From: Mytilus trossulus
Lineage: Eukaryota
Direction: 5' to 3'
Length of the DNA: 64,000 nt
Assembly (NCBI RefSeq): GCF_036588685.1
Contig: NC_086375.1
Location: 14,074,001 to 14,138,000 of the forward strand
Shown: positions 3,451-50,600 of the stretch, one piece after another
How the letters are laid out: each line of letters opens with the position of its first letter
How positions within the stretch are numbered: the stretch's first letter is position 1
Program-made: the position numbers and the translations under genes
The notes under the pieces: generated by a model
Seen by the model: the letters and a program-made list of their open reading frames with translations, nothing else
The model's database searches: none
Told to the model about the DNA's origin: nothing

Positions 3451-3815
3451 TTGATAACTATTGACAGCACTGGGTCGATGCCACTACTGGTGGACGTTTC
3501 GTCCCCGAGGGTATCACCAGCCCAGTAGTCAACACTCCGGTGTTGACATGAATATCAATAATGTGGTCATTTTTATAAATTTCCTGTTTACAATACTTTG
3601 AATTTTTCGAAAAACTAAGGATTTTCTTATCCAAGGCATAGATTACCTTAGCCATATTTGGCACAACTTTTGGGAATTTTGAATCCTCAATGCTCTTCAA
3701 CTTTGTACTTGTTTGGCTTTATAAATATTTTGATTTGAGCGTCACTGATGAGTCTTATGTAGACGAAACGCGCGTCTGGCGTACTTAATTATAATCCTGG
3801 TACCTTTGATAACTA
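3451..3815 (+). mobile_element. Retrozyme monomer (355-bp unit plus 10-nt terminal redundancy), subfamily A
   Basis: ttgataacta at 3451 and 3806 (period 355). Contains a hammerhead core. Flanked by ttctcc direct repeats (3445-3450, 3818-3823) inside a Penelope-like RT remnant. Confidence 0.8.
3739..3782 (+). ncRNA. Type I hammerhead ribozyme (intact core)
   Basis: GCGUCA-CUGAUGA-GUCU/UAUGU/AGAC-GAAA-CGCGCG-UC^UGGCGU. Stem I GCGUCA:UGGCGU, stem II GUCU:AGAC, palindromic stem III ACGCGCGU. GUC cleavage after 3776. Confidence 0.9.
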
Positions 3816-6404
3816 TATTCTCCATTTTTAAACCAAGAGTTCCAAATGGTGAAGTTGAAATCATCGCTTCGTAAACTTGCTATCGCGAGTTGGTAAACCA
3901 TTATAGAATATCCGTTTCACATATGATATCAGATATGTTCCTCAGGTAGCACTACATAGTTAGAAAAAAATATTAAAATTTGATCTTATAGATTTTACCA
4001 TCACTTTTCATTGCTTTCTTTCAATATTAAGCTTACTGTTTGTGTCATTCATGTACATGTATATGTATGTGTTTAGAATCTTCAGTAATAAAATAGTAAA
4101 ATATAATTTCTTGTGTGTGTATCTGTGGCAACAATCTGCATTTATTTGTTTAAAAAAGTGTGGGGGTGGTCACATATTTCCCAACAATTTGGCTAAAAGT
4201 AGAATTTCGATCGCTTGAGGAAATACTTTTTTTTTGTTTTTTGAAACTGTTTCCATATATTTTTCAATAAATCCAATGAAAATAATATGTCTTTCGTCTC
4301 ATTTTCTTGTAAAAATGCTTCAAAAACTTCGTGCAGAAAAAAGTCTTTGTATACATTGCATTACATTCGGGGCAGATGGACGGTCTAGCTATGGAAATCA
4401 AAGAGTCAAACAGAAAATAGCCAATAAAACATGTAAACAATGATCTTGTTGTTCCTATTAAATAGATTTACTTATAGAAGCGTTCAATTCTTAAAACTGT
4501 AAGGTTATGCTGAAAATGTATAATTGGGAAAACATTTAAATACATGTGTGGCTAATCGGAAATATATTATGTTGTCCTAAATTACAACTCTAGGGTAAAA
4601 GAAAAAGGTTTTAAGACCAAGAATGTCTTATTTTCTTTTTCAATTTCTTTTTAAAAATCCCGGCCTATTTGCAATAATTTTAATGTTAATTGTTTGTGCT
4701 CAGAATATGTAAAATATTCAGAATAAGAAAAATGTGGACCGATTCATGCGTGGTATTAGTAAACACTTCAGTTAATACCTGTAATTACTAATCAGATTGA
4801 TAATATATTGGCCGAAAACGTTAAAGGGTTTTAGACAAAAAGGAACTAAATAGAATACCATACGGCTAACTCTTACTGAGGGAGTTGTAAGTAAAGGGAT
4901 ATGAATTGTAGGCTGATTTGAGGGGATTAGAAATCAAAGGTCCTTTCAATTAAATTTGAAACAGTTTGTTTTTTTCTATTTTCAAAACTATGGGAACTCT
5001 TCATCACACGAAAAAACAATTCAAGAAAAAAAAGTACAGAATGGGATCATCCTTTTAGTTTCTCAGTGCAGGTCACTAGTACGGTTTGCTTAATGCAAGG
5101 GGCAACTTTCTTCAATACTGATGACGTTGTATGTAAAAGATTTTTAAATGGAATTTCTAAGTAATGGTGATTCGACGTATTACGTACAGTAATTGTTTTT
5201 TTATTGGCTTATGCATGATGATGATATGATTGCTTTCTGATTCTGTAACAGTTACTTGGTATAAAAAGGAAGACCCATTTGTGGCCTTGGCGATTGTTTT
5301 TACTCTGGAATCTGGTTTTTGTCTCTTTGACACAATCCCCATTTCTATTCTCAATTTTGTTGAACTCTCATAAACGGAGTTTTACAAAACAGGACGGAAG
5401 GTACCAGAGGGACAATCAAACTCATCAATCGAAAATAAAGTCTACAAAAACAATTCTATCATACAAATTATCTTATTTAGAAAAGGTGGTTTTATGAGGG
5501 TAAAAGAAAAATGGTATTTTCATGGTAATGTAATTGACATAAATAATAAGTTTTGTTACTTAGGAGTACTACTGATTTCAAACGGTACACTCTTTTAAAA
5601 CTCAGAAATATTAGCTGAGCAATATATATTGTTGATAAAAGAAAATGCCTGTACCACGTCAGGAATATGACAGTTGTTTTGCATTCATTTGGTATGTTTG
5701 AAATTTTAAATCACCATATAATAAAGGACTTTCCTTTTCTATTTTCCACTGAGTTCGCTATTTTTGTTATTTTTGTTTAAAGAAAACCCCTAAACTGAAA
5801 ATGCCAAAAGAAACAACATTGCAATTGATTTTTAATCTTTAACCCTTCAACCTAAATTTTGAAAAGTACATGAAAGTTATACTGCAATGAAAATGGGATA
5901 TTGTTTTACTCAAGGTTTTTTTATTTTATAGAAATATGTACGATGTGGTATCAGTGCTAGTGAGACGATTTCTATATCCAGGTCACAATGTGTAAAAGGA
6001 AACCATTATGGTCACTGTACAGCCTTCAACATGGATTCTTGGCTCACAGCGTTTTAACCTATGCGAATGTTTAAGGATCTTAATATAGGTCACCTCTTGG
6101 ATAGCTCCAATCTGATTCTAGCAATTGTAAGGTAAGCTCGATCTGTGTTAAAACAACTCAAGATCGCCTCTAGCTCAGTTAATTAACATAGTGCATGGTT
6201 AAGAACATCTTTAAATAGCAAATCAACAGTACATGTTTACCTATACCATTTTTCGAAAAATCAAATAAATATTTTCATATATTAAAAACAATTGTTTGAG
6301 TACAATATATTTTTACTATATTAAGCAACGGTACAATATGTTTGTCTGTTATTGTTTTAATTTGATAATTTTGACTCCCATGTTCTTGTGGTGAAGAGCA
6401 TTGA

Positions 6405-6930
6405 TTAAAGTCATTAGAAACGAGTGACCAGTGAAAAATAATGTTCTTCCAATTCTTGAACCAATGCATACAAATATCATAATCTTAGTCTTCTGTCATC
6501 GAATTGATCATTTTTTTCGTGTAATTTTCGTTTAATCGTCAATTTTTTTTCCACCGGTCAGTGTTGTTGTGAAATATGGCAGGTAATTAAAGTTCGTGTT
6601 TTGAAGCCGAAGTCTAACGATTGTCACCTGTTTGTCAAAAATTGACGAAAAATAAACAAAAAAGCATGGAAATTGAGCACGTGTTTAACATGTAAATTCA
6701 GATAATAGTTTATTTTAAGGACATCCATGCGTATTGTGATCACCGGATTTTTACGAGATGGGTCACACTGAGGTCACTTTGCATACGGAAAATATGTCGA
6801 GGGAATTAGCAATTAAAATTGAGTAAACTTCTTCTAAATATGAATAAATTAAAGAATTTTCTTCAGAAAAAAGTATATGTACATAAGTTTTATAATGAAA
6901 ACTATCCATTGAGTTATAAAAAAAACATAA
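6405..6930 (+). repeat. Dispersed repeat, second copy at ~53865-54390
   Basis: Shared blocks ccaattcttgaaccaatgcat, ggtcactttgcatacggaaaatatgtc and tataatgaaaactatccattg in the same order in both places. Confidence 0.7.
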
Positions 6931-9049: not shown

Positions 9050-9690
9050 AGTAATTATTGCATTTAAATTAAAAAAAAAATATTATACCAATTGAATAAG
9101 AAATATTGAATGCAAATGATTTTTATACCAATTGAATAAAAAATATTGCATTTGAATGAAAATTATAATGTTTGAATGAAAAATTCTAACATTTGAATAA
9201 AAAAATTTGCATTCAAATGAAAAAATATTGCATTTAAATGAAAAATAAAGGCAACAGTAGTATACCGCTGTTCAAAACTCATAAATCCATGGACAAAAAA
9301 CTAAATCGGGGTAACAAACTAAAACCGAGGGAAGCGCATTAAATATAAGAGGAGAACAACGTCACAACACCAAAACGTAACACACACAGAAACGGACCAA
9401 GCAACAGACAAAACACCACGAGAATAACAAATATAACATCAAAACCAAATACATGAATTTGGGATAGACAAGTAAAAAATTGTGCATTTAAATGAAAAAA
9501 TATACCTTTTAAATGAAAAATTATACCATTTGAATAAAAAATATTGCATTTAAATGAAAAAATATACCATTTGAATAAAAAAACACTTCATGTAAATGAA
9601 AAAATATACCAGTCAAATGAAAAAATATTGCATTTTAATGAAGAAATATACCAATTAAATATATAATACTGCAGTTAAATGAAAAATATC
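9050..9690. repeat. Degenerate ~21-bp AT-rich minisatellite (aatgaaaaaatattgcattta / aatataccattt) interrupted by a dispersed repeat at ~9244-9473
   Basis: The unit recurs on both sides of an aataaaggcaacagtagtataccgctgttc insertion. Confidence 0.7.
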
Positions 9691-10267: not shown

Positions 10268-11789
10268 AATTTAGAACATACACACATTCGAGTGACCTTA
10301 CAAAATTATCCTTTCCCATTGTAATATTCAAACATTTGAAGTGTTCACTTTTTATAATGAACTAAATGTAAAACTTAGGTTTAAATAATCATTTCAATGG
10401 ATGGAATGAAAAAGCTCGGACATAGTTTGTGAGGACCAAATTGTGGATAAATTGGGTTTTTTTTCTGCTTCAGGTAAAATTTTATACTTACATATCTTTA
10501 GATTTTTTTGTTTTAAAAAGCATCACATTGTTATATAAATCCCCTTTTTTGAAATTTCACTTTTTTTATAAATATAAAATTCTGTATGTATAGTTAAATT
10601 TATACCATTCAATTAAGTGTTACTTTTTATTGATAAATTTACATGTATTGTGTTTCTCCAAAAACAATTCTTTGCTTTAAATATCAACAGTCTGGCATTG
10701 TTTCTTGAAAAGACAATCTCTCCAATTTCAGGTATATAAATCAAATAAGTATTATTTTACATATATCTCACCCAAATTGATTTTGTTTATTTTATATATG
10801 TGTACCGTTAGAAAATGTATGAAAATTTGCTAAATTCAAAATGTTTTGATTTAATGTTTGCTCTTTCATCTTTAATCAGTAAGCTCTTCTCCCATGGAAA
10901 ATACCTCAGGGGATTGTTCACTTCGTTAGTTCAGTTATTAAGAGTTCACTTTCATAATTAACTGACAATGAAAAGTCATTCATGTATAGCATTTCATAGT
11001 GCATGGAAAACCGTGTACTATGAAAATTAGAGGGAAAACACTGACTTTTCATTGGACGAGGAGGGGTGAGTATGTTCTAATTGAAATAAAATCGACTGCA
11101 GAGCACTCGATATGGTAGAATATTTTCTTCGACGTGAACCTGTCTACACATATTTTTTTTTTTATTAATTTACCTGTTAAGATTTTGAAAATCACAATAC
11201 CAATTGTTCTGATCAGATGCACAATTTGACATAACGAAAATCTATGCGACTACCATATATGTGAGAGTTTAAGCTACCGATAAAACCAGGTTAAATCCTT
11301 CTTTTTCGACGTAAGGAAATACCTACAGCAATTCAGAAATGCGACAGTTGTTTTCTTTTCGTTTGATGTGTTTCAGCTTTTGAATTTGCCATTTCATAAG
11401 GAACTTTCCGTTTTATTTTTTTTCCTAGGAGTTCGGTATTTTTGTTATTTTACTTTTTTCGACAATGAATGTCTTTTCTGAGAGACCAAAATATTTGAAA
11501 ATCCAAACCTTATTAAAAAGAAAATGGAGACCTGATAAATAAAAAACGTACAAAATGTATAGCAAAAGTTAAATGCAAAAAAACAACATACATATTGACT
11601 GTGACCATGAGTTAACTACTATATTTTGTTTACATGTTTTCAGTATTATCTTGACAAAACCTATCTACGGTAGGTATAACAGAACCTCTAATAGAATTAA
11701 TATTAGGGGACATTGCCCTACGATGATGATGTTTATGTACTGTCTGTGTGTTCCTGCTTATCATAAGAAAAAAAAACGAAAGACATGAG

Positions 11790-12035
11790 TATTTGGTCCT
11801 CAATGCTCTTCAACTTCGTAATTTATTTGGCCTTTTAAACATTTTTTTTATTCGGGCGTCATTGATGAGTCTTTTGTAGACGAAACGCGCGTCTTGCGTA
11901 TCTATGATGAGTTCATATACATGTAAGAAGACGATACATTTGTTTTAGCCTTTTAAACATTTTTAAAAACGAGCTTCACTGATGAGTTTTTTGTAAACGA
12001 AACGCGTGTCTGGCGTATCTATGATGAGTTTATAT
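11790..12035 (+). mobile_element. Two truncated retrozyme subfamily-B fragments, each with a hammerhead (11856-11899 core UUGAUGA; ~11973-12016 core CUGAUGA)
   Basis: gcgtca-ttgatga-gtct..agac-gaaa-cgcgcg-tc and gcttca-ctgatga-gttt..aaac-gaaa-cgcgtg-tc-tggcgt; each is followed by tctatgatgagtt. Confidence 0.75.
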
Positions 12036-12319
12036 ACATGTTAGAAAACGATCTAAATCAGTCCTGGTACTGTAAAAAATTATCGCAAAAGAAATTTAAT
12101 TAAAATCATTCAATTAAAAAAACCTTTTTACACATTTAGATACATTCATGTCTTCTTTTTTCAGTTAATTTACCAGATGAAATAGTGGTTTTCATCATTA
12201 GTGAGGCAACAACAAAGACGTATGCCAGCTTGAAAGCCACGAAATTTGCCATATAACTATTAGTTTGTTTTAATTGTTTCAACGTTTATGGTTAGCAAAG
12301 GAATAAAGAACACATTACT

Positions 12320-12536
12320 ATGGCTTCTCTTTCTGTAGAGGAAGAAAACTATGTTCGAATGAGCTTGTTCTTGACAGGAATTTCTCCCCGTGCAGCTAGA
12401 GCCTTTTTTGATAGTGAGTTTGCTCCCGCGTGTTTAGATGCGTCAATAAAGAAAGAGTATAACAAATTGCTTGCCTTGAAACAGGAACATAGAATCAACC
12501 AATCACAGTGGAACCTTCTGTTTCCAAGATTTCCTG
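12320..12536 (+). CDS. HEPN-coiled coil-STAND-ankyrin (NLR-like) gene, coding exon 1 (start of DZIP3-like HEPN domain)
   Basis: ATG at 12320. EEENYVRMSLFLTGISPRAARAFFDSEF...INQSQWNLLFP is typical of invertebrate DZIP3-like HEPN N-termini. Donor G|gtaagt at 12537; phase 1 matches exon 2. Confidence 0.85.
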
Positions 12537-13597
12537 GTAAGTGCATACAAAATTGTATAAGATATGTTATAAAATTCCCAAAAATACTACTGTATATCAT
12601 ATTTATGTCCAAAGCTTCTTTTCTTAAGATGTCAAAGTGCATCAAGTGTAAATCTTAAATCTTATTTCTAGTATTTTAATTTTTTTGTTAACACCAAACA
12701 CGCATAGAATTTAAAAAAATGATTATTCTTGCGATGATAAATTAAATTATCCTTTGCAGATAAACTATTTGGAAGAGGTTTTTTTTTAAATTCAAAGGTC
12801 ACAGTTCACGTCTCTGCACACAACCTCACAACTTTCAGAAAAAACAATGATTCCAAATTTTACTTTATATCTGCTTATTTGATTGAATCAAATTCATATT
12901 GAATGTTTATGATAGATGGACAGCAGAGAAAGTATAATTGGTCTCTAAAGTTTAGATTTAATTCGTCAAAGTTAAAGAGCTTTGTTTCAATCAACACATT
13001 TTTAATATATACACTGTTAAGCATACCAAAGTTCAATATGACATCCCCAACACATTAAATAACATATTACATTTTATCCAATAGCGTGTCATGTGAAACT
13101 TTTTTTAAATTTTGTTCAGACCCAACTGGACACAACACAAACTGGAAAATCAAATGAATTGAATGTGTTCATAAAAACCTTAGTTGACATTTTAATTAAA
13201 GGTAAAAACAATAACCCCACACTTGTCGTTATGTCATATCTTGAATAGATATAGTGAGATATGGTATGAGGTCATGAGGACCAATGGGACAACACTCTAT
13301 CTAAGTCACAATTTGTAAAAGTGTACTTTTATAGGACAGAGGAAGAAATTCAACACGGAGCAGTGGCTCACACCTATTTTCAAGCTTTAAAACACCCCAA
13401 AAATGATTATTGTAAAACCATTCAAACAGGGAACAAACGGTTTGATCTTTAAAAAAACGAGAAACAGTTATGAACCTATCAATAACTGACAACCACTGAA
13501 TAACAGGATCCTTACTTAGGACAGGTGCATAAAAATACAGCGGGTTTTAACGTTGTGATAGGCACCAATCGTCACCCTAAATTGAAACAATAGTTAA

Positions 13598-13846
13598 GGC
13601 TCATTATAACAAACGGACAAATATGACTGTATTTACATGCCAACAATTACTCTGAGTACAGGAAAAAAATGTTCATCAAAAACCAAGAAATTTTTTATTT
13701 TTCTTACACACAAAATGCATTTAACTTTTATATATTTAATGGATGCTAGGCATTAAAACTTTCCAAACAGCAAAAGTAAGTCTGTACACAAAGTTGTTTT
13801 TTGAGGTGAAAATACGGCCATATTTGTCCATTTGTAAGGATGAGCC
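13598..13846. mobile_element. MITE with TTAA TSD (Kolobok-like non-autonomous element) in intron 1
   Basis: TTAA|GGCTCATTATACAAACGGACAAATATG ... CATATTTGTCCATTTGTAAGGATGAGCC|TTAA. Confidence 0.75.
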
Positions 13847-14814
13847 TTAAACATCCCAACCTAGAAAGATATAATATAAAATTTCAATTCAAAGGGCTTT
13901 ACTCAATAAAAGACGAAATAACAAAATAACAAGCCATCAAATTGAGAATGGAAATGGTGAATGTGTCGAAGAGACAACAACCCTACCAAATAGCAGAACA
14001 CTGCCGACGACCACCAATGGATCTTGAACACAGCGAAAAAATCCCGCACCCAGAGGCGGAAACGACAGAATAAATTTGATCTAAGACACAATAAAATTAC
14101 TAAATGAAAAAAGGGGTGAGATGTAAAACAATATCAGAGAGACAACCATTACACTGGACAGAAGTGTAAAATAAAATAACGTACATAGATAAATAAGAAT
14201 GATTTTGTTTTACAGTAAATGGATTGTTTTAAGAAAATAAATAATTTTGTTGTTCTAAGTACGGGAACAGAAGTGAAAATGTATCGTCACACCAAACCTT
14301 TATCAAAGGTGGTGTTTATTAAAAATAGTGGGTAGGGACATAACACTAAATAAGTAAAAATTTAGGACGCCTCCGGGTATGGGAATTTCTCGCTACATTG
14401 AAGACCTGTTGTTGACCTTCTGCTGTTGTCTTTTCTATGGTCGGGTTGTTGTCTGTTTTACACATTCCCCATTTCCATTCTCAATGTTATTAAATAACAA
14501 AATTGCATAAAAAATTGTATCAACCGGTCAAATTAAAACGAATGTAGGAAAGTACTCTTTAAGAGTACTCGCAGTTATTGAAAGATAATTAAAAGCAAAA
14601 AACAATTAAGAACAAAAAGTCATGTAGAGACTGAAATTAACCAAAACACTTCATAGGGATTTATTAATTACAATTAATAGAAATGAAGAAAAAGTAACTT
14701 CATATAGGGAAACGAGAAGAAAGTCTACCATCAATGACAAAGCATCGAACTTCTAGTAGGTTTAAACATGTTTGTTAACAACCGTTCTTACCCTACCTAT
14801 CTTGATGTAATTCA

Positions 14815-15025
14815 AGATGATTTCAGCTTTCCAATTGTGAACTCTCCATTTTGAGTAGCAACATTCCAGCAGCACCTGCATACGGGGTATATATTTCCCA
14901 ATTGATACGATATTTCCGTGCTTCCATTTCCTATCATGATTTTCTTGATTGAGGTTGCTGCTCATAAGGAAGCTATCAAACCAAGAGTTCCAAATAGTGA
15001 AGTTGAAATCATTCCTTCGTAAATT
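14815..15025 (+). pseudogene. Penelope-like RT C-terminal fragment
   Basis: Translates with frameshifts to DDFSFPIVN..SNIPAAPAYGVYISQLIRY, the same motif as the remnant at 33700-34775. Confidence 0.6.
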
Positions 15026-15289
15026 CTCAATGTAAAAAGTAAAAAAACAAAAATAATGAACTCCGAGGAAAATTCAAAAAGGAAAATCAAAAATCAAAAG
15101 GCAAAATCAAAAGTCCAAACACATCAATTGATTTATTTTTTCAACTGTCATACAAGTGATACGATTGGATAGCTTCAAAACCAAGTTTAATTCACCATTT
15201 TTGATACGAAAGGGAGGAAGGAATATGACAGTTGTTTTCCAGTTTCTTAAACTTATGAAATGAGATTTAGTGTCAGATTTATTTTCCAG

Positions 15290-15519
15290 ATGTTCCAGAC
15301 TCTAAAACATTTGATGTGACTTTAATGACGTCATTGCTGAGGAATTTGACTCCAATGAATCCTCCCCGTTGTGGATTTGACAGGTTACCTTCTGACTTAG
15401 ACACCACACCAGCTGCAGATTTAGCCAGAATAAAATATTACAGGAATTACCTAGCTCATTTGGAGAATGGCAAGATAGACACTTCTGTCTTCAATACAAC
15501 GTGGACTGATATGACTGGT
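15290..15519 (+). CDS. NLR-like gene coding exon 2 (HEPN core with RxxxxH motif)
   Basis: Acceptor attttccag|. Reads (D)VPDSKTFDVTLMTSLLRNL...DLARIKYYRNYLAH...WTDMTG, with RNYLAH at 15442-15459. Donor gtatgt at 15520, phase 0. Confidence 0.9.
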
Positions 15520-16600
15520 GTATGTATATATCAATATCATTTTAACTGTTTAAGTGAGAGGGTTAGCGCTATAGAACCAGGTTTAATCCACCATTTTCTA
15601 CATTTGAAAATGCCTGTACCAAGTCAGGAATATGACAGTTCTTGTCCATTCGTTTTTGATGCGTTTTGTTTTTTGATTTTGCCATGTGATTATGGACTTT
15701 CGAAATTGATTTTCCTCTGAGTTCGGTATTTTTGTGATTTTACTTTTTCCTTGTGACTACATCTTCTCCGTACCAGTAAAAGATCGCGACAAATTTTATC
15801 TTAAAAAATTGCTCGTTATCTCCTTCGCATGATTTGTCCTATTCTGACAGAAGCAATATCAACACTCCATATGAGAGCTATTTTCCCTTATGCATGTGAT
15901 ATACGTGATAAGCATTTCTATTTTGTAAACCATAAGTGATAGAGACCGAGGATCTTCTGATTGAAGTTCGTGGTCCAAAATAAGAAAATTAGGTCATAAA
16001 TAAAATTTTCGTTTTGACTCAATGAAAAACTGTATAAGATATCGACAGCATAGTTTTACAAAATTGTCAGTTGCGACATGTCGTAACGAGTGAATTTTGG
16101 TTTGACAGGGTACGCTCACATCAAATTGGAGTTTTCTCCCCTCTCATATTGAAAGTTAGTCATAAAGTGATATACCACACTAACCATATATGATTAAGAC
16201 CTATGGTCTTTTGATTTGAAGCCCTTGGTTTATTACCTTGAAATTGAACCCTAGGTCATAGGTTAAATTGACTTCTAAATTTTGACCTTGCTTTTACATA
16301 ATATGTAATAACGATAAAGCCATGTGACTGTTTGCACTACGTTGCAAGACACTTGACCATGGAAAAGCCAACCAGAATTGGAAACCGGAAGTAGATATTT
16401 TTTGTACTTATTTAATGTAAAAGTATTTTGAAAAATATAATTTTAGAATCAGTATCAAGTAAACTATGAAAAAAACCCGGAAGTGACATATTTCAAACTG
16501 GAAGAAAAAATATATCTCCTTTATTTTGAAAAAAATGTATAGAAACAATATATTTTTGGAATCTAGGTACAATCAGCTATCATTTGACGCTGGATATGAT

Positions 16601-16772
16601 TATCTTAGGGTGGTATAATCAGACTTTTTAGGCACAATAAGAAATACTAGTTGTTTCTAGTTGTAATGATTCTAAACTCCATTTGCATACAAATCACAAC
16701 GTCATAAGTAGCATGACGTTACAATACATACATAGCGGTACCGCGAACGTCTAATGAACACAGTCCTGAACA
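16601..16772 (-). repeat. 3' LTR of the BEL/Pao element
   Basis: Minus strand reads TGTTCAGG...TAAGATA; 6 mismatches against 22334-22505. Confidence 0.92.
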
Positions 16773-16989
16773 TTCTGGGGGCCCGCGAATGATAATTTAA
16801 GCAATAAATAAAGAGAAAATATTAAAATGAAATAACTATTGTCTCTCAATTGAAATAAACTTTAACTATTTACACTTAAACAGTCTTTATGCTTTACGGA
16901 ACGGTTGAATCCAACTTTTGATTTTCTCCTTGGCATCAGTTTTTGCTTTTCTGGTTGAAGTAATAGTATTGTCACTAGAATCACACGGA

Positions 16990-22316: not shown

Positions 22317-22332
22317 CCTGGTCACGGCACCA
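22315..22332 (-). promoter_or_regulatory. Primer binding site complementary to the tRNA-His 3' end
   Basis: Minus strand TGGTGCCGTGACCAGGAT, 1 nt from the 5' LTR; matches the tRNA-His end ...ATCCTGGTCACGGCA-CCA (recalled sequence). Confidence 0.85.
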
Positions 22333-22333
22333 A

Positions 22334-22505
22334 TATCTTAGAGTGGTATAATCAGACTTTTTAGGCACAATAAGAAATACTAGTTGTTTCTACTTGTAAT
22401 GATTCTAAACTCCATTTGCACATAAATCACAACGGCATAAGTAGCATGACGTTACAATACATACATAGCGGTACCGCGAACGTTTAATGAACACAGTCCT
22501 GAACA
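22334..22505 (-). repeat. 5' LTR of the BEL/Pao element
   Basis: Direct repeat of 16601-16772, adjacent to the PBS. Confidence 0.92.
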
Positions 22506-22779
22506 ATGATATTTCAAACTGAATTTTCATAGTTCTATATCAAAATTGATCTTTATGGGTGGAAAGCGAACAACTGATTTTTGATTGTTATTTCTTGTTA
22601 ATAATTAGACTGTTATGTTTTGTCATGATGTGGCCTTCTAAAGCTAAGTATATGGTTTAGAGTTTTGTTCATTGTTGCAAGCTGTATTGTTACCAATAGT
22701 TGCTTACGTACACACCTCATTTGTTCTCTATTGGATAGTTGTCGAAAATTTATTTCATTTAAAAATTTATAACATACAA

Positions 22780-23630
22780 TAGTTATCAAAGGTACCAGGA
22801 TTATAATTTAGTACGCCAGACGCGCGTTTCGTCTACATAAGACTCATCAGTGACGCTCATATCAAAATATTTATAAAGCCAAACAAGTGAAAAGTTGAAG
22901 AGCATTGAGGATCCAAAATTCCCCAAAATTGTGCCAAATACAGCTAAGGTTTTCTATGTCTGGAATAAGAAAATCCTTAGTTTTTCGAAAAATTCAAAGT
23001 TTTGTAAACAGGAAATTTATAAAAATGACCACATTATTGATATTCATGTCAACACCGAAGTGTTGACTACTGGGCTGGTGATACCCTCGGGGACGAAACG
23101 TCCACCAGCAGTGGCATCGACCCAGTGGTGTAAATAGTTATCAAAGGTACCAGGATTATAATTTAGTACGCCAGACGCGCGTTTCGTCTACATAAGACTC
23201 ATCAGTGACGCTCATATCAAAATATTTATAAAGCCAAACAAGTGAAAAGTCGAAGAGCATTGAGGATCCAAAATTCCAAAAATATTGTGCCAAATACAGC
23301 TAAGGTTTTCTATGCCTGGAATAAGAAAATCCTTAGTTTTTCGAAAAAATCAAAGTTTTGTAAACAGGAAATTTATAAAAATGACCACATTATTGATATT
23401 CATGTCAACACCGAAGTGTTAACTACTGGGCTGGTGATACCCTCGGGGACGAAACGTCAACCAGCAGTGGCATCGACCCAGTGGTGTAAATAGTTATCAA
23501 AGGTACCAGGATTATAATTTAGTACGCCAGACGCGCGTTTCGTCTACATAAGACTCATCAGTGACGCTCATATCAAAATATTTATAAAGCCAAACAAGTG
23601 AAAAGTTGAAGAAGAGCATTGAGGATCCAA
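22780..23630 (-). mobile_element. Tandem retrozyme array (~2.4 x 355 bp) with three intact hammerheads on the minus strand (22813-22856, 23168-23211, 23524-23567)
   Basis: agttatcaaaggtacc at 22781, 23136 and 23492. Each unit has acgccagacgcgcgtttcgtctacataagactcatcagtgacgc, the reverse complement of a type I hammerhead. Confidence 0.88.
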
Positions 23631-24002
23631 CGTGCGTCTGTCGTACTAAATTATAATCCTGGTACCTTTGATAACTATTTACACCACTGGGTCGATGTCA
23701 TTGCTGGTAGACGTTTCGTCCCCGATGGTATCACCAGCCCAGTAGTCAACACTTCGGTGTTGACATAAATATCAATAATGTAGTCATTTTATACAAGCTA
23801 AGGATTTTCTTATCCCAGGAATATATTACCTTAGCCGTATATGGCACATCTTTTTGGAACTTTGGATCATCAATGCTCTCCAACTATTTACTTTTTTGGC
23901 GTAATACGTATTTTGATATGAGCGTCACTGATGAGTCAAATGTAGACGAAACGCGCGTCTGGCGTACTAAATTAGAATCCTTATAGGTACCTTTGATAAC
24001 TA
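23631..24002 (+). mobile_element. Inverted retrozyme copy (internally deleted) joined head-to-head to the array
   Basis: Reverse complement of the preceding units; ends ggtacctttgataacta at 24002. Confidence 0.85.
23922..23965 (+). ncRNA. Type I hammerhead ribozyme, sense to the host pre-mRNA
   Basis: GCGUCA-CUGAUGA-GUC/AAAUGUA/GAC-GAAA-CGCGCG-UC^UGGCGU; predicted cut after 23959. Confidence 0.8.
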
Positions 24003-24018
24003 TAATCATATGTTACAG

Positions 24019-24334
24019 GCCATTGCAAGATTGGGTGGACAGCAAATGAAGCAGGAGTGTGACCATTTGAAGACCAAACCTCTAGATCAAACCAACACAG
24101 AAATAATGATAGAAGTCAAACGATCTAATGATGAAATCAAGGAACTTAAGGAATCGTTAAGAAGTCTGAAGTGCTCACATATTGACATGAGAAAATCTCA
24201 TGAACTACTACATGAAAACCACGAAAAGGTAAAGAAATCACATGAAAGGTTACAGGAAGACCATGCAAATATAACAAGAGAAATGGAAACATTGAAAACC
24301 TCTCAGCAGGATACAGTACCATGGAATATTAGAG
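24019..24334 (+). CDS. NLR-like gene coding exon 3 (end of HEPN plus coiled coil)
   Basis: Acceptor tgttacag|GCC. AIARLGG continues WTDMTG in phase 0, followed by a heptad-rich segment. Donor G|gtaaat at 24335, phase 1. Confidence 0.87.
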
Positions 24335-25529
24335 GTAAATAGTTCACGTACTCAGTTATTTTGAAGAATCAGATTACATTGAATTCGGAATGGTAAACAG
24401 TTGTTAAGGATCATAATTTGTACTTTGAAATGTTAGTGGTTGAAATTCTGAAGGCCTCGGTGATTGTCAAGGAGACAACTCTTCACAAGAGACCAAATGA
24501 CACAGATATGAACTAAAGTTCACCATGTTTTGTTAAGGGAGCTAATTGATAATTCCTTAAAATGTTTAATGTCTAAACTTTATGGTGTACAGAGTATTTT
24601 GAAAGTTTTAGATTGATATTTGGAGGACAGATAAAAACCGTGAAATTTTGAATTAACTCCGAGAGAATAAGCCTCTACCTTTAAAAAGGTTTAAATTTGA
24701 GTTTAAGTTTTGACCTTAGAATGAGGAAGGTAAACACTTGGAAGTTACATGCTACTTATGTATATTTTTTCAACTAAATTACTTGTTGTTTTCATGGAGA
24801 TTATATGGCTTGCCCTCTCATTATCATTTAGTGACAGAAACTTTTGCAAAGCTAACAAAGTGAGAAAAAAGTGATTTTGTCAGTTTAAAAGTGTTTGCTG
24901 TGTTTATTCTTGCGTTGCTTATTACTATGAAGATTATTAGGCTCTTCACCTTATAATCATTATCTGTTAATGATTTTATCATTCTTACAATATTGAATGT
25001 CAAAATAACATCATATCAAAAAATATCTCCGTGCCAACAGTTTATTTTGCTTTGTACGAATCTGTTAATATTGTCTCGATTAATAAGAGGCATAAGAGCA
25101 CACACAAATGTTAAACCTGCTTTATTCTATTAGTGCCAGGTCAGAGTCAGTAGCCTGCAATACAGGGGTTTGACTTAATGGATTGCTGTATCATTGTAAA
25201 TTTAACCTTTTCCCTATTTGATATATAAAGAAACAGTGTTATTTTCAACTTAAAGCTCCAAACTCCTGTGTGATTACCTACGTAACCTTTTATTGCAACC
25301 AAATATTTTACTAGTTATTAGTTTCTGTATTTTATTTGATGGAAACATGTACTCAGATAATTGTATGGTCATTCATTGTAAGATGTAAGGTTTTCTTTAC
25401 ATAATGTCCCATGTGTTGGCAAATTTTTTTCACTCCAGTTTTGGAATTAAATTACTAAGGTTTTATAAAAAAAAAATGAGGTGATGTGACATAATTGATA
25501 TATTAACAAGATCAATATAATGAATCTTA

Positions 25530-39237: not shown

Positions 39238-41928
39238 TCAATATGAAATAATGGTTTTATGTTATCAAAATGGGGAGGCAATTTTAAATGATGAAATCTT
39301 AAAAGATGTAATATATAGGTTTAAAAAAATCAATGCATCTGTTCATTTATCTAATATTCAAGAATTTCGTTCATGATCTAAATATTTATCGATACGAGGG
39401 AACAACCCATGGTAATACACAGCTGTATATAATTATACACTTACATTCATTGAAATTCATAAAGGAAAATCTCTTATCAGGTTGCAAAATTAAAAGCTCA
39501 AACACATCAAACAAATGGAAAACAACTGTCATATTCCTGACTTTGTACATGAAATCATTTATGTAGAAAATTGTGGATTAAACCTGGTTTTAAACTAGCT
39601 AAAACTATCACTTGTTATACAGTCGAAAAAAAAATCCATTATATGACAACAAACAAACATAACAGGTAAAATGTGAATCACTATAAAAGTAATCAAATAT
39701 GGTAACAAAGAAAAACAAAATGTCATATAGAAAAATTACATAAGCAAAATAAAAGAAAGACAAAAATTCAAAAAGTGACCATAATACAAAAATGCGATGG
39801 TAGAACGTTTAGGTACTAAGCCACACCAAGAGATTATAAACAAAATCGGGCTAAACAGCAAACGTTAAAAATTAACAAAGACAAATTAAAGAACTTATGA
39901 CACTTAATTAGAAAGATGAAAAATGTCAATATCTAGAATCTATACTTCACGAACATCATGTATTATATATGTATACGGAGTGTATACGAAACATTTTCTT
40001 TACAAGGTCCTTTGCTCTTTAAAGTATTATGTAGCTGACCAAGTTAGCGTTATAAAACTAGCAGCTCCGTGCAAAGGTCTGTCTCACTCAAATTTAACAT
40101 GGAAGCATAATTTATGAAATAGTTCAAATAACCTTAATACTTTTAGTCAAACATTGAAGTTTACTTATCTCGAAATCTACTATAAAACATAAAAAATGAA
40201 GAAAAAAAGAAATAGTAAGAATGGAACATAATAACAGACAACACCAACATCCAATAATGCAATCTATTGTATTCCATTACCAACAAGATAAATTCTTAAT
40301 AATTTTTAACAAAAAGTAAAAGTGATCGGCTCTTCGGCACATAATTGAAACCAGGGTAAGCATGTGCTGACTACTACACAAATTGGAGAAGTTGTCAGCG
40401 CTTTTGGGTATGACCAGTTTATAATTAATAAAGCCAGAAATAACACGAATACCATACTTTCTAACAACTCTTCCTAAAAGTGAACTCAAATCTGCAGTAT
40501 GTGTGTGATGCAACATAGTACTTTAAATCGCAATAGTATTGAGAGAGAACATTTTCACTGAGTTATTTATTTCTTCTTATGGAAAAAAGATGTAAGGATT
40601 ATCCCTCTTCTAAAATGACCGGTTTTAAAAGAAAATGCTCTTTTACAAATATTACATTTAATGTTTTAGAGGAAATAAACAATATGAAATGTTTCCCGTG
40701 AAAAAAATAAGTTTGAAAAAATCTGCAAAAAGGGGACAATCCAAAAAGATCGCTGGTCAAAATGGAAAAATAGATACATTGACTATTTGATTGTCAAATT
40801 GATAAGTTGTCTTGTGTCAAAAATTTTGATAACGCAGCGAAAATACTTGAACGAAGATAAAAGACACAATAGCAAAATTAAATCTAATGAAAAAAACTAG
40901 GACACAAATTTGTGGGATAACAAAATATCTCAAACAGTTTTTTTTTTTTATTAAATAAGATAACAAATATTTATTTCAAAATGATTTCTCAATTTCCGTT
41001 AAAACGACAACTAGTCATCGTTGCTATGTAGGTACGACCTTGTCATAATTTTAATTACTCTTGGTATACCTATATTTGTTTTAATAAAAATGTATTCTTA
41101 TTTCATCTGTTTGAAGCAATTTGATAGCTAATTACTTGTTCACTAAATGCAACGGTTAGTTTACTAATCAGATAGCATAATTTGCTCAGGAATAGACCAA
41201 CAACATAAAACATAAAAGGGTTCATGAGAAATGAGGTTAGTCTTGTGAGACAATCTAACCTGCTCGAACGAATTTCAAACGAGCAGCTACTTTGTACAGA
41301 CTTCATAAAAGCATATTTTGTAAACCTGGTAAATAAGGACTTATTTATCTAGTCCTAATGGATTATCCCCCAGTTTGAAATTTCGGTAAAGAAACCGAAT
41401 TTTGACACGGTCAAATCGAATCTACAAGAAAATGTATACATATTTCAAACAAAATTGTTCCTACACATAACTGTATTTTTTTTTAAGGGGTAAGATATTT
41501 TGGATTATTTTGTTATCAATAACAAATGCTTTGAATCACTGCAAAGCCCTTGTTGAAAGTTTAATCTGAAAATAATAGAAAAATTGAATTTCGTAAAGGA
41601 GGGTACATACATTTTTTTCCTATGCAGCAAAAGTACTGCAATCTGATTGGTTGACTACGCCGGTGTAAATGACACTCCACCTTCTTTTACCCCGGGATAA
41701 ATAAAATTTTGCCAAAATAAAGAAAAAAAATAAAATTAAAAAAAAATAACAAGAAGAAAATGTTTAAGAAAGTTTAAAAGAAAACCATATTTTTTAAATC
41801 TTTTTAAAAATATTACGCTGGAAATTTTTCATTACCATTTTTACAATTTTACATCCTGGTTTAAAAATGAGTAAATGAATTGTTCATAAGCAATACATTC
41901 ATTATCGTGGTGTAAGCAGGGGTGCACG

Positions 41929-43917: not shown

Positions 43918-46900
43918 TAGTGCGGTGACAATTAAGGTAAATTAAAACATTTAATGCACCAAAATACCTCACGGCTAATTTTGGTCTTATTTTGAAGATA
44001 AATATAATACCCTTCTATTAAGGCATGTCGTAGAATGCCAAAGTGGTGCAGATTTTTGAAAATTGCGATTAAAGGTTAAAAGGGGGGATTTTAAAAAATC
44101 GGAATTTTTGGACATTTTGGACGATTTCTGGATAGTCGCTCATGATAACTGAGAAAAAAATTCAATGGAAGCAAGCTCTTAGGGTGCTGCACAAATTCAG
44201 CTTCTAATATTTATGCCAGATTGACATAGATTAGTGATGTTCACCCTCGCAGCCAATATGGAAGAAAATGATAAAGATTATCTTTATTTACAAAAAATAT
44301 CGATAAAAAATATTTATATTTAATAAAGATATTTTTGGGAAAGTTTTGTTAAGATACCATAAAGAATAAAGGAGAAGTTAGAACTGTAAAGTTTACACCC
44401 GGTCCATGATTCAATGAAAAAATGATCAAATTCATAATTCCTTTTGGAAATAAAAAAATAATGTTGAAATTATAAAAATAGTCTTGATGCATAACTGTCA
44501 GCATGAACACGATAGTATATGAAGTTTTATTGATGACAATAGGTCAACCAGTCTAAGAGTAATATCATTTTGAAAATGCATGACGATGTGTGCATCCCCC
44601 TTTTTTTATAAAACAACGCAAACAACAAAAAATCAAGAGTAGACTCTTGACTTTTACCGTTTTAAAGCACTATATATATCACACAAACACGATTTACAGA
44701 AAATTTGATACAAATGAAGATATTTGTGTATATTTCAATAACATTTGACATTATTATGCACGTCCGATAATTTGAAGTCGTTACGAAAAACTAACACAAA
44801 AAAGTACATGTTATGCTTCTAAAATATTTGATAAAGTTTGCAGTTGGTTTACAAGCATGCAAACCTGTTGCAATGTTTATTAGCGATTACATACCGCCGT
44901 ATCCCTTCGAATCTGTGATTATAGTCTTCTCTGTTGCCATATCACTCTATATGCCATTGAATACACCAGGCTTTTGTCTGACTGCAAACTTTCCGGACAT
45001 TAAAGCTGAATAAGTGTCTTTTGGGAGATTCAGCATGTCAATTAAATAAGCTGGTGTCCACCTAGCATAATCTGTTTTGTTTGCAAGAAGAAACAATGCA
45101 ACATAGAAGACACGGATTGGTGGTGTAAAGTTCAATCTCCATCACGTTCTGCTTTGACATTCATAATCATAACGTCAACGGCTCGTAAAACATTTCCCAA
45201 AATTTAAAAGTTGAAGATGCTTTATAAGAAAACTCTCTGAACTCCGAAATCAACGAAGATAACTGTTCCCGGAAAAGAATTAAAAATTCAGAGAGATCTA
45301 ATACCTTTGTATTAAGGTCACTGAATGCATCATGACAAAAAAGCATTGTTTGCCAGATTTTTCGTCTATGCTAGCAATTTTTCGTTGGTTTGAACACCAT
45401 TGAAAACATTTCTTGAACCATAATGCCATCACAGTTTCATATGCTAATGTGTAAGCTCTAACACCGCGATTAAACTGCTTGCCTTGGAGAATATGATCTA
45501 CAGTACATCCTGCAAATGCACCCAAATCGACCAATAAATCCCGAAGCCCAGCCATATTTTGCCTATTGCTGAAATGTAACTAGAAACCATGTGAAATCAA
45601 CATAATCTAACAACGTGTGGGTGAAAAATCTGAGACAAAGACCACTTTACTTGTTGGGCTATGGCATAAAGCTGTTGGTCGAAGGTCTGTTCTGGGTTAT
45701 TATGACCTGCAGCCTTTGACATTTCTACGCATTTCACAATTGTCGTATATACTGTTGCCATGTCAGCAGTTTTTGCGTCTATGATTGGAGGATATGCAAC
45801 GACGGAAAGTCTTTTGTAAAAGCCTGTCCAAAAAGGTATCATTTGTTTTTTTATCATTTTAAAACCAATGTAGTTCAACAATGTCGCGTGTAAGTGATCG
45901 GAGCAATACCCAAGCCTTATCAGACACGTTAGATTTATTGGTTGCACATGATTCGATTTGGCAGTATGGCTCGGTACATTTAGGTGGGCCGAATCTTTCC
46001 TTAGGCTTATAGAAAGGCAAACATGACATGAGACTAGAAGTGTTTTCATCCATAGTTTCTGCATTAATATCAACGTTGTCAGACCCGTCTTGAATGGAGT
46101 CTCCACCTGAAATTTTAGGACATATTCAATTGGGGATGTATGTTTCATTTTGGGAACTTATAATTTCATGGTTAGCTGAACTAGTCAAAAATTGTCTAAC
46201 CTCAGTGTAAGACGCACAAAAGCCATGCGAATGTAAAGTTTCAATAAGATTTTTAGAACCATAATCATGATGCAACTGAAGAGCCAATGATAAACTAAAA
46301 GGTGTAAACTATTTTTTTATGCAGCGATATCACACACTCGACTAAAGCAATACATTTCCGTACTGTATCACCTGAGAGTGAATTGAAATCATTCTCCATA
46401 TGAAAATAGTTATCATCTATTACTAGTAATCTGGCAAGAAAGTTTATCAAAGAGGTAGGTATGAATTGTAAAGCCGTAGAGATAGAAACTTCCGAAGGAG
46501 ATGGATAAAATTCAGCCGAAATTTTGAAGGATAGTAAACTGCTTCTCAAAATTTTTGCAGCATCATGTAGGGTCTGATCTTCTTGATGTATGGAATCATT
46601 AACAAAACTGGTTTTCATCTCAGAAAATTCCGCTTTAAAACTACTGGCAGCGCGAATAGCCTCAGAAACACTGATAGAGCTACTGAAAATCATATTTGAT
46701 TTACCCTGTCCTCTTTGAGACTGAACAACAATGCGATCACCGTAGTGATTTTTCAGTTTGTGTTGCAGTTTATAAGTTGTATATCTACTTCTAATTTCTT
46801 GTGGGAGAATGGAACAATACGTGTCTAGTAAATTCGACAACGAAAATGCTTTCTTATTAAAAAAACAGATCATCGTGTAGAACTTCCGTCAGGTTCTTGA

Positions 46901-48354
46901 AAGCAATATCATGCTCCGCCTCATTTGAAACATCATCGGAAGGTTCCCTTTTCCAGTTCAGCATATAGTTAGCAATGCATGTTGAATGATACAATGCCTT
47001 GTCCTTGAAGTTCTCCATAGAGAGTAAACTTACCATTTGATAGTCAAAGTTGTCTTTTGCTGCATTTAATATATTATCAGCACGTTCAACAGACTCGTAA
47101 TTGCTTATCTCGCTTGTAAGACTTTTGTTTACAGAATAAACATTTAGGCCAGTCTAATTGTAATACCGTTGAGCGTGTTTTAACACAAGTTGGTTCAAAC
47201 ACAAAATGGTTTGCACTCGATGTTGAGCATACTTCTTTACCTATTTGAAATGTTTCCAATTTTTTTTTACTTGTATAGGCTTTATAACACGACCTATGAT
47301 ATTTTATTTGTTCTAATGGAACCACTTTCATTGATTCAAATTCATCATAAAGGCGGCGATAAAAAATACCCTGTCTGACATCTATTGCGTCTAAAAGAGT
47401 AGTCTTCCCTTTTTTCTGTTGCATTGACAAATGTTCATTAGTAGATATTTGGCAAATAACGCATAATTCCCAATTACTCTTAAGCCTACTCCTTTTTGGA
47501 ACTGAGTGAGCAAACTTAACAGGACTCGTGTCCATTATTTTCCGGGTTATTTCGGGGATGTACCAATGTGGTTTAAAATTAGTTTATTCAACAAAATTAA
47601 CAAGAAATAAAACAACTAAAAATCACTAACACATAAAATCTGTATACTCAGTCAAAAACTAGACATGGACAATGATTAAAATATGTCTTACTATAGATGA
47701 AAAAAAAGAAAATACACAGTTTTATTTTCTGGGGAAAACAGCAAATCATAAGTCAGGGGGAAATAGGAAAAGGGAAAGCAACAAGACTTAATGAGGTGAA
47801 AATCAAATAGTAAAACTGCTAAATGATAAGTATTATAAAACGGCCCGAAAAACTTAATTTGCATACTTTTTCGCAATTTTAGGCATTAAAACTTCTTGCA
47901 TATTGATTATTATACTGTTTTTTGTGAAAATGTGCCACTGATGATATATATAAGAAATGGTATATACTTTGTCAGACGGTAACATTGTAAAAAAATGACA
48001 TATACATTTGAAAATCGTCCAATTCACTTAATTTATATGATCATATGATAAGAAAGTTTGATATCAATTTAAAGCTGATACAGTACTCTTTCATATGATA
48101 ACAACTTTTGTGTTGATATCTTCATTCGGGAATTAGTTATAAACGTTCGCGTTTTTGAAAATGAAAAAGAAAAAAATCGGAAAGTCACACTTTATCGCAA
48201 TTTTACAAAAAACTGCACCGCGGGAAAACTCTACGACAGGGCTAAAATGAAAGTATAATGTTAACTCTATCTTCGTGTGCATTTTCAGCCGTGGTGTATT
48301 TCGGTGCATTAAACTCCTTAACTAAGCGACTTTTCCTGATTTGTCACTCCACTA
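43918..48354 (-). mobile_element. Academ-like DNA transposon, decayed and 3'-deleted
   Basis: Long imperfect TIRs TAGTG..GTGACAA...TTTAATGCACC.AAATAC...TGTCGTAGA...GGTGCAG. Fragments CVICQ..YHRSCY, LHSHGFCASY, TFDQQLYAIA, VVRL..FH and GLRDLL..ILQGKQFNRGVRA. The superfamily call is from recalled motifs and termini. Confidence 0.7.
44890..47535 (-). pseudogene. Fragmented transposase of the Academ-like element
   Basis: ORFs 47086-47535, 46295-46873, 45597-46148, 45298-45555 and 44947-45135 are colinear pieces broken by stops and frameshifts. Confidence 0.75.
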
Positions 48355-50034
48355 AACGTACTGTCTTGTATGCAATGGGTTTCCTTCTGATCAACCTTCA
48401 TTATGCTTGATTTTCCTTAGCAAATGGTATAGGGGGTCTTCATTATCTCGGAATGTCTTTAACAGCGTGTATTGCCTGATTTATTCTCAAAACGACTTAT
48501 AGTGAAATGGTGATGACCAACAATACGTGCAGTTTTTACAGCGACATCCCTGTTTCCCTTATGCTGATAATCTGCCATTTTGCTGCAGGTAAGAGTTGTC
48601 AAGGACCCATTATAAGGTGTCAATCACATAACTTTAAAAATTTGGTTATTTAAAGGGTTGAAAACAATGAGGATAAACACAACTGTTTTGCTGTTTACGG
48701 ATACAGTAGCTGCATGTGCAGATAAAAAATTATCGAGTCGATATTTATTGATTAAACTCAGGTGATACTAAAGTAATGTTTAACTAGTTCTTTTTTACCA
48801 AATTGTATCCCAAAAAAATGAAGAGTGTTTTTTTAATTTCAATTTCAATTTGATGTTGCAATACTTTTTTCCATGTGTATATATATTATTTACTATATTT
48901 TGGCGAAAATCTTTCAAACCTTTTAGTATATTTAAAATTCGTCTGTCATAATTTGATGATTGAGACGGAATTTTGTCAATATCGAAATCTCGAAGGTCTA
49001 GAAAAAAGTAAAATCACAAAAATACTGAACTCAGAGGAAAATCAAATCGGCAAGTCCCTTATCACATGACAAGCTCAAACGACAAAACACATCAAAAAAG
49101 AAAGGACAAGAACTGTCACATTCCTGACATGGAACAGACATTTTCAAAATGTTGAAAACGGTGTATTGAAACTGCTTTCATAGCGCTGAACCTCTCACTT
49201 ATACGAAAGTTGCATCAAAATTATTGATAATGATGCGTGAGCAAAACAAACAGACACAATAGGTAAAAAAATCACAAATAATAATAGAAAGTCTAATTCG
49301 GTAGGTCATATTCGTGAAAAGGGAACGGGATTGCAGTTACAACATAAGGAACATATCCGATATCATCTATTTGTAAGATATTCCATAATGTTGAACCAAC
49401 TCGTGATGGCGTCCGTAAAATTTACGAAGTGATGATTTTAAGCTTCCCAATGCTTCACTCTTGGGAATCTTAAATCAACTCCTTTGTCGTTGAGTTTTGT
49501 TTTCGACAGACCCTCATAGTCTAATTCTAGATATAAATCCTAATCAAGTGTCAAAATCAAATGCTCAAACACATCAAACAAAGAAAAAACATCTGCCATA
49601 TACCTGACTTGGTACAGGCATTTCCTATGTAGAAAAATGGGGGATAAAACCTGGTTTTATAGCGCTAAACCTCTCACTTTGTACAACAGTCTCGTCAAAT
49701 TCCGTTATATTTACAATCATGCGTGAACTAAACAGACATCATAAATAAAATAGTAGATATATGGGTACAGCAGTCATCCTCGTGTTACAATTTTAAAAGT
49801 AACAATTTAACAGAACACAAAACCATCTATCAAATTTGAAACACACTCATTGCTTCGTGTGTATGACGTCAGAATATTTATACGTCACATTTTTTTGTCG
49901 TTCAATGTTTATACCAACAATTTTATAATTTCACATGGGCAATGTTAACATCCAGTGTTAAAAAATCAAAAGTATGTAAATATTAATTTAAGAAATAGAC
50001 CGGGCTTTTAGAATAGTCCAAAAGTTGAATAAGA

Positions 50035-50600
50035 AGTTATCAAATGTACCAGGATTATAATTTAATACGCCAGACGCGCGTTTCGTCTACATAAGACTCA
50101 CCAGTGACGCTCTAATAAAAAAAAGTTATGACCCCAAACAAGTTCAAAGTTGAAGAGCATTGAGGACCCAAAATTCCGAAATGTTGTGCCAAATACGGCT
50201 ACGGTAATCTATACCTAGGATAAGAAAATCCTTAGTTTTCCAAAAAATCATAGTTTTGTAACAGAAAATTTATAAGAATGACCATATAATTGATACTCAG
50301 GTAAACACAGAAGTGCTGACTACTGGGCTGGTGATACTCTCGGGGACGAAACGTCCACTAGCAGTGGCAGCGACCCAGTGATGTAAATAGTTATCAAATG
50401 TACACGGATTATAATTTTATACGCCAGACGCGCGTTTCGTCTACATAAGTGACGCTCTAATAATAAAAAGTTTTTTAAGCCAAACAAGTACAAAGTTTAA
50501 GAGCATTGAGGACCCAAAATCCAAAATGTTGTGCCAAATACGGCTAAGGTTATCTATTCCTGAGATAAGAAAATTCTTAGGTTTTTTTCCAAAAAATTAT
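50035..50600 (-). mobile_element. Retrozyme subfamily-A, ~1.6 units, with damaged hammerheads (50067-50110 core CUGGUGA; second core deleted)
   Basis: agttatcaaatgtac at 50035 and ~50389; homologous to 22780-23630. Confidence 0.8.

Follow-up and report, generated by a model that had tools for sequence, protein, structure and literature searches.

Hammerhead retrozymes are already known from the mussel Mytilus galloprovincialis, in which about 5000 type I hammerheads were reported in two families of 350-390-bp repeats, together with abundant circular RNAs, ligation by RtcB and Penelope-like elements (PLEs) as proposed candidate mobilisers (Cervera and de la Pena 2020, PMC7229834; this and the other papers cited below are referred to for the portions of their text that were accessible). 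In the current study, a stretch of 64,000 nt from Mytilus trossulus (NC_086375.1, positions 14,074,001 to 14,138,000; here called the window) was analysed, in which ~355-bp repeats carry 12 type I hammerhead cores, five of them intact, one near-intact and six damaged. The repeats are protein-free copies of a retrozyme without long terminal repeats (non-LTR retrozyme), probably inserted by the reverse transcriptase (RT) of a PLE of the Naiad clade. Judged by its description, the M. galloprovincialis retrozyme is in all likelihood this element or one closely related to it. The class is known because it has been published for mussels, as an earlier, preliminary description of this DNA had presumed. 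Neither a fixed 3′ end nor an initiation element nor a Naiad is reported in the accessible part of the M. galloprovincialis paper.

Naiad PLEs have been described as 5′-truncated and in part arranged in tandem (Craig et al. 2021, PMC8557442), which also applies to the retrozymes described here. The retrozymes differ from Naiads in having no protein and in carrying a hammerhead, and the accessible text of that paper describes no RNA element common to the two. For the lizard PLE Poseidon_Ac, reverse transcription was found in vitro to start internally and to require RNA that extends 3′ of the initiation point (Frangieh et al. 2024, PMC11167929). Likenesses to the present case are the internal start, which is predicted here, the A/T-rich targets and genomic ends that match start sites. 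Poseidon_Ac is, however, a canonical PLE with a C-terminal endonuclease, two start sites and a 30-40-nt tail, whereas the retrozymes have one narrow end window per family, a probable Naiad partner and a non-autonomous RNA template.

A preprint on Xenopus tied non-LTR retrozymes to PLE terminal sequence, viewing them as non-autonomous PLE derivatives, and suggested that PLE enzymes are hijacked for their mobilisation (Li, Clavereau, Pollet, bioRxiv 10.64898/2026.07.22.740005). It rests on homology and co-occurrence; a mollusc, end mapping, a Naiad partner and a structural signal are absent from its accessible text. Helenus/Ajax (PMC10886601, in its accessible part) is unrelated to the retrozymes described here. 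No publication stating a link between Naiads and retrozymes was found in a literature search, which leaves out most subscription papers. As regards the copying of animal retrozymes, the enzyme has so far only been proposed, and a specific candidate protein, a 60-nt RNA and a predicted start nucleotide can now be named. With the retrozyme class already known, the candidate mobilising clade and its putative start signal are the addition, and comparison of sequences supports them well.

Hammerheads and retrozyme families

Copies of the retrozyme unit were located in the window by BLAST and nhmmer with one unit as query. They fall into family A (units of 355 and 356 bp, 83-98% identical among copies) and family B (364 bp), which are 71-79% identical to each other and correspond to the two subfamilies recognised in the preliminary description. 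A search with the Rfam Hammerhead_1 model (RF00163) in E-value mode returned matches over the full model length at 3739-3782(+), 22813-22856(-), 23168-23211(-), 23524-23567(-) and 23922-23965(+), with scores of 33.0/32.9 bits and E 2.4e-4 for the whole window. Weaker matches were obtained at 50067, 11856, 30554 and 11973. A scan of the window at gathering thresholds returned no hammerheads, because the best scores, at 33 bits, fall one bit short of the gathering score of 34 bits.

A strict hammerhead descriptor detected exactly the same five cores, and none in each of 30 shuffles. All five had been listed as intact in the preliminary description (by their starts at 3739, 22813, 23168, 23524 and 23922), so that the hammerheads lie where it had placed them. 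The six cores it had listed as damaged (11856, ~25775, ~26137, ~30560, 50067 and 50421) were likewise present with mutations or deletions, those at ~25775, ~26137 and 50421 being still detectable. The core at 11973-12016 has an intact catalytic core and a single mismatch in stem I.

The type I assignment is based on the CUGANGA, GAAA and NUH core elements, stems I-III and the position of the ends in stem I. All three stems covary: among six cores of families A-D, 7 of 14 pairs were changed on both sides and 97.6% of cells were paired, figures that are descriptive and not a probability since only six related sequences were compared. A cloned genomic repeat of M. galloprovincialis self-cleaved at ~0.1/min (PMC7229834), and the window copies may likewise cleave site-specifically.

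The exact A/B core pattern occurred 18,401 times in the genome (1.3 Gb, 14 large contigs), and the control 0 times. Family C (350-bp unit, 66% identical to A; 789 exact matches of one 30-mer) was traced from a loose end in RNA reads, and a fourth hammerhead family, D (548 bp), was found beside canonical PLEs. The GC content of the window is 32.6%. Several hallmarks of metazoan non-LTR retrozymes, namely tandem units of 150-450 bp with one hammerhead each, GC below 50% and many dispersed copies, were found and, together with the subfamilies and antisense pseudo-frames, support the earlier reading of the repeats. The repeated '80-aa ORFs' (open reading frames) are, as had been suggested, merely stop-to-stop frames antisense to the ribozyme strand. 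Among them there was no ATG-started ORF of at least 75 aa and no Pfam match, and the units, having only these frames, have no protein-coding capacity.

Stem III consists of two pairs and a tetraloop, and is palindromic at the family level in four forms (ACGCGCGU, AUGCGCAU, AUCUAGAU and AUCCGGAU). The palindrome is kept across families by compensatory changes, some of them within the loop. Since changes in the loop matter only on pairing with a second copy, conservation of the palindrome bears on a dimer. For family A, the monomer hammerhead fold (-5.7 kcal/mol) was not the minimum (-9.2), and the minimum of the two-copy co-fold was exactly the double hammerhead (-29.5); the co-fold minimum was likewise the double hammerhead in families C and D. 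Dimeric cleavage, which the palindrome had earlier been taken to suggest, is therefore plausible to the extent that the elements are predicted to be dimer-capable. Several points argue against a strict need for a dimer: the published mussel monomer clone self-cleaves, its authors assigned the dimer requirement to amphibian and not to invertebrate motifs (PMC7229834), and helix III has two pairs here, compared with the 1-bp helix III and poor monomer cleavage of obligate amphibian-type dimers.

Fixed 3′ ends and a stem-loop common to retrozymes and Naiads

The ends of the arrays were compared in 37 loci of family A (drawn from the top-scoring 40 among 4021 candidates; L026 and L027 are duplicates), 20 of family C and 20 of family B (one overlapping locus dropped). 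In family A, the 34 main arrays whose 3′ end is visible all terminate between +34 and +48 past the cleavage site, 13 of them at +41, and the visible 5′ ends (n=35) are scattered over 1-330. Family C arrays end at +30 to +38 in 18 of 20 cases (11 at +34). More noise is seen in family B, which is older; 12 of 18 arrays end at +44 to +54, four reach the query boundary, and two end at +37 and +57. Apparent LTR-type termini at query positions 307 and ~50 in the genome search resulted from clipping by the search and occurred in none of the fetched loci.

The offset of the 3′ end from the ribozyme cut varies by family (A +41, B ~+48, C +34), and the first helix of a conserved stem-loop begins at +48 in A, +54 in B and +40 in C. 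The fixed 3′ end is set by this stem-loop 5-6 nt further on, and not by the ribozyme cut. Target duplications of at least 5 nt were found at 10 of 29 junctions, compared with 2.3 in permuted data (0/1000 permutations). The junctions came from 40 arrays of >90% identity, of which seven without the anchor motif, three at a locus edge and one duplicate were not usable. One fixed end, random 5′ ends and duplications of the target are the footprint of target-primed insertion, 5′ truncation and target duplication being those of retrotransposition.

The stem-loop is ~60 nt long and conserved in families A, C and B, with folding z of -3.0, -2.8 and -2.1, respectively. PLE families were surfaced by a GIY-YIG search (150 scored out of 615 candidates) and a protein search (150 out of 3313). 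Among them were three young Naiad families whose ORFs are long and intact (1056, 927 and 1000 aa; 55-66% protein identity), all of which show the Naiad diagnostics, i.e. GIY-YIG N-terminal to RT, CxC, DKA and the upstream Cys motif. The cysteine motif of Naiad-1 has the long spacing noted for mussels (PMC8557442). These candidate partner families are without a canonical hammerhead. Fixed 3′ ends were seen at 23 termini of family 1, 11 of family 3 and 8 of family 2. In tandem copies of Naiads the stem-loop follows the fixed 3′ end, just before or overlapping the ORF start, and Naiad insertions terminate 3-10 nt ahead of the same helix.

A stem-loop profile built from 63 retrozyme-only sequences matched at E 2e-18 to 5e-17 in Naiad-3 (9 of 11 loci), at E 1e-9 to 8e-8 in Naiad-2 (7 of 9 loci) and at E 1e-4 to 5e-4 in Naiad-1 (19 of 25 loci), the last with an inserted hairpin, and was without a match in all 15 canonical PLE loci. 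When the inserted-hairpin form was searched with a gapped pattern, 62 matches were obtained, 51 of them of Naiad-1 type. Independent folds of retrozymes A, B and C, Naiad-3 and Naiad-2a showed the same helices; Naiad-1 retains the two outer ones, and one decayed Naiad-2 copy folds otherwise. Of the 13 pairs that make up the outer helices, 8 were changed on both sides, and 99% of cells were paired, compared with 25-48% in slid controls.

A cis element shared with Naiads at a matching distance from the 3′ end is what a Naiad-mobilised derivative would carry. As the stem-loop lies just past the fixed end of retrozymes and Naiads alike, the Naiad RT likely binds there and starts internally. The earlier proposal of mobilisation by Penelope-like RTs gains support from this, and can be narrowed to the Naiad clade by the shared stem-loop and the end position.

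Directly after the shared stem-loop, a second, also conserved hairpin occupies unit positions ~103-126 in families A, B and C (e.g. ~23048-23071, minus strand). It has a UUCG loop in A and C and compensatory stem changes, and is absent from Naiads. The stem-loop region of Naiads can itself be tandem (G000:C12:27544251-27545100 and L217:4-378), with periods of 131 bp and 77 bp. A subfamily of Naiad-1 bears a 27-29-nt retrozyme tail in one repeat of its untranslated region (UTR). This tail was rejected as a shared Naiad-1 terminus, being an insertion in one 3′ UTR repeat.

Proposed mobilisation and alternatives

In the proposed pathway, multimeric transcripts would self-cleave to monomers that are then ligated into circles, as in the published mussel retrozyme. 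Besides the monomer fold, cleavage may use a double hammerhead formed by pairing of the palindromic stem III. The Naiad protein would bind the stem-loop, its endonuclease would nick A/T-rich DNA, and the RT would start 4-7 nt 5′ of the stem-loop, within the RNA. Because the signal sits beyond the start point, a new copy would regain it only from a circle or a tandem transcript. In a circle the signal would come to lie 3′ of the initiation point, which would let a ribozyme-free retrotransposon copy a small circular RNA, and copying round the template would yield head-to-tail arrays with random 5′ ends.

It appears reasonably probable that the 60-nt stem-loop is a portable recruitment and start signal of the Naiad RT, with the ribozyme circles as minimal parasites that would be amplified by rolling-circle, target-primed copying. 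If so, the enzyme and the cis element of animal retrozyme mobilisation would be identified, and the need of retrozymes for tandem or circular forms would be explained. A PLE clade without ribozymes would drive parasites that bear them, internal initiation, as seen in one lizard element, would apply to the Naiad clade as well, and a compact signal for the reverse transcription of circular RNA would be available.

In raw RNA reads filed under a species label in which the repeat occurs, 5975 of 8.7 million records fall on one unit. Along the body of the unit, first mates map ~5:1 to the strand opposite that of the ribozyme, and this bias is inverted where the element has the other orientation (~2:1 at plus-strand copies of family B). 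Neighbouring Naiad-end repeats are strand-biased too, and the single-copy flanks of the retrozymes have almost no read depth. Carry-over of DNA, multiplied by copy number, could account for the read depth, but not for the strand bias. Loose ends at +41 to +43 (23131-23133), where family A arrays also stop, were found in raw RNA reads and in contigs of other runs. A circle junction and a tandem junction are alike in short reads.

Several points weigh against Naiad-driven insertion. For binding, initiation, cleavage and circles the case relies on inference and on findings from other publications. The RNA would be sense under the usual library convention, the host ankyrin/NTPase exon having too few reads to calibrate its direction, and no pile-up of read ends was seen at the cleavage site, a result that is undecisive in fragmented libraries. 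The family A sample represents the youngest copies because the best-scoring loci were taken, and the PLE comparison covers the families surfaced in the GIY-YIG and protein searches. Duplications of at least 5 nt were weakly enriched at Naiad junctions (4/16 compared with 1.5, p 0.048; mean length p 0.11). A mutual insertion preference was unsupported, Naiad termini abutting retrozymes in 5/40 cases and nearby controls in 9/120. The layout of a head-to-head pair in the window (23630/23639) is absent from the sampled loci. Finally, the shared stem-loop sequence could be an inherited relic, although covariation together with a constant spacing speaks for a function.

It is also conceivable, although rather unlikely, that the same Naiad partner uses uncleaved, linear, multimeric read-through RNA as its template, the ribozyme serving RNA accumulation only. 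Ribozyme mutants of Poseidon_Ac were without effect on insertion in vitro, and unprocessed RNA was the main substrate (PMC11167929), which would fit such a template, as would the steady read depth across the cleavage site and the finding that monomers within one array differ by 0.5-17 bases on average. However, circles dominate the retrozyme RNA of the mussel (PMC7229834). Monomers were also closer within than between arrays in 23/23 arrays outside the window (the window row mixes two arrays), a result that fits a single template and also a homogeneous source array. In addition, 5′ ends cluster at -6 to +1 of the cleavage site in 7/72 arrays (p 0.001, with the interval chosen post hoc), which hints at a special role of the junction within the template.

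A canonical mobiliser seems improbable. Under this explanation the retrozyme descended from the 5′ end of a Naiad and is now moved by a canonical hammerhead PLE or another non-LTR RT, the stem-loop being a relic or serving circle stability. Several canonical families were found, intact canonical ORFs exist in the genome, and one family has its own 3′-end hammerhead with a non-palindromic stem III (L112:~4390-4430, L118:~4820-4860). Xenopus retrozymes, moreover, resemble pseudo-LTRs of annotated PLEs (bioRxiv 10.64898/2026.07.22.740005). Against this, the 3′ end follows the stem-loop and not the ribozyme cut in three retrozyme families, and the stem-loop was missing from all canonical loci compared. 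Inverted arms cover the ORF in 5/15 canonical PLE loci, whereas adjacent inverted arms were seen in 0/76 retrozyme loci and 0/43 Naiad loci, although inverted 5′ arms are described as frequent in Naiads (PMC8557442).

Family D (L109:374-1507, L113:5763-5806 and L114:7876-8465) could be a retrozyme that depends on another mobiliser. Its core resembles that of family C, and the Naiad stem-loop is absent.

Ordinary satellite DNA spread by unequal crossing-over, with a mere hammerhead look-alike, is very hard to reconcile with one fixed and one random end, target duplications, compensatory changes across three hammerhead stems and the dispersal of family A as short arrays over contigs C1-C12, C14 and C20, even though some arrays exceed 9 kb or hold dozens of units and local amplification probably contributes there.

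Retrozymes, Naiad remnants and neighbouring features of the window

Retrozyme and Naiad-related features with their positions in the window.
Feature	Position	Strand	Remarks
Family A copy, 5′-truncated	3451..3817	+	intact hammerhead 3739-3782; stops ~41 nt past cleavage site
Stem-loop element in this family A copy	3461..3530	+
Two short family B-like fragments	11792..12052	+	117-bp duplication; second core 11973-12016 catalytically intact, one stem I mismatch
Core in family B-like fragment	11856..11899	+	damaged: C3U plus stem I mismatch
Young family A array, 2.4 units	22778..23630	-	three intact hammerheads; fixed 3′ end 22778
Stem-loop common with Naiads	23065..23134	-	first helix 6 nt past array-end position; second copy ~23421-23490
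Older family A copy	23639..24003	+	89% identical, 34-bp deletion; intact hammerhead 23922-23965; ends +40
Family B array, ~1.9 units of 364 bp	25528..26221	+	cores ~25773-25816 and 26137-26180 damaged
Naiad family-2 3′ end	26242..27079	-	87% identical; 3′ UTR with dead retrozyme relic ~26750-27004
Family B fragment	30514..30662	-	core 30554-30597 damaged: G8A, stem I broken
Retrozyme-like body fragment	32991..33110	-	without ribozyme core
Old Naiad family-1-like 3′ remnant	48999..50956	-	74-81% identical; hosts the 50032-50597 array in same orientation
Family A array, 1.6 units	50032..50597	-	core 50067-50110 A6G; core ~50421 13-nt deletion

The array at 50032-50597 interrupts the 3′ UTR of the Naiad-1-like remnant and is flanked by a 7-nt target duplication. 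A dead 13th core at ~26800(-) belongs to the 3′ UTR of the Naiad-2 copy; as a relic within that UTR it was rejected as an independent retrozyme copy. Further 5′-truncated Naiad 3′ ends, from three families in all, lie at 2575-2878, 5640-5773, 9243-9474, 11244-11465, 15032-15127, 15549-15751 (98% identical to a young Naiad-1 copy), 39453-39656, 61977-62316 and 63111-64000. The Naiad traces in the window show long coexistence with retrozymes, and not a targeting preference.

The head-to-head junction joins two family A copies of different age, one young and one older, the older arm starting 5 nt upstream of a cleavage site. Origin in a single two-armed event was judged unlikely, as the arms are 89% identical and the two tail copies of the plus arm differ; it is further disfavoured by the lack of such arms in the 76 other loci.

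Exons of an nSTAND3 NTPase-ankyrin gene extend over 12320-30195 (+), including a 636-aa frame at 28285-30195; frames at 12320 and 24010 are possibly part of it. Several retrozyme copies lie between these exons, and one stops 6 nt before the ATG at 24010. RNA read coverage of this gene was near nil.

A BEL/Pao-type LTR retrotransposon with 172-bp terminal repeats (97% identical) occupies 16601-22505 (-). Its ORFs are fragmented (DUF1758, integrase, DUF5641), and its end lies ~270 bp from the young retrozyme array. Eight 166-bp units of 92% identity at 36149-37496 are unrelated to the retrozyme. Several broken frames without a Pfam match at 45298-47535 (-) may be a decayed DNA transposon, and a degenerate 21-bp minisatellite at 9074-9686 is broken up by the Naiad-2 3′ end at 9243-9474.

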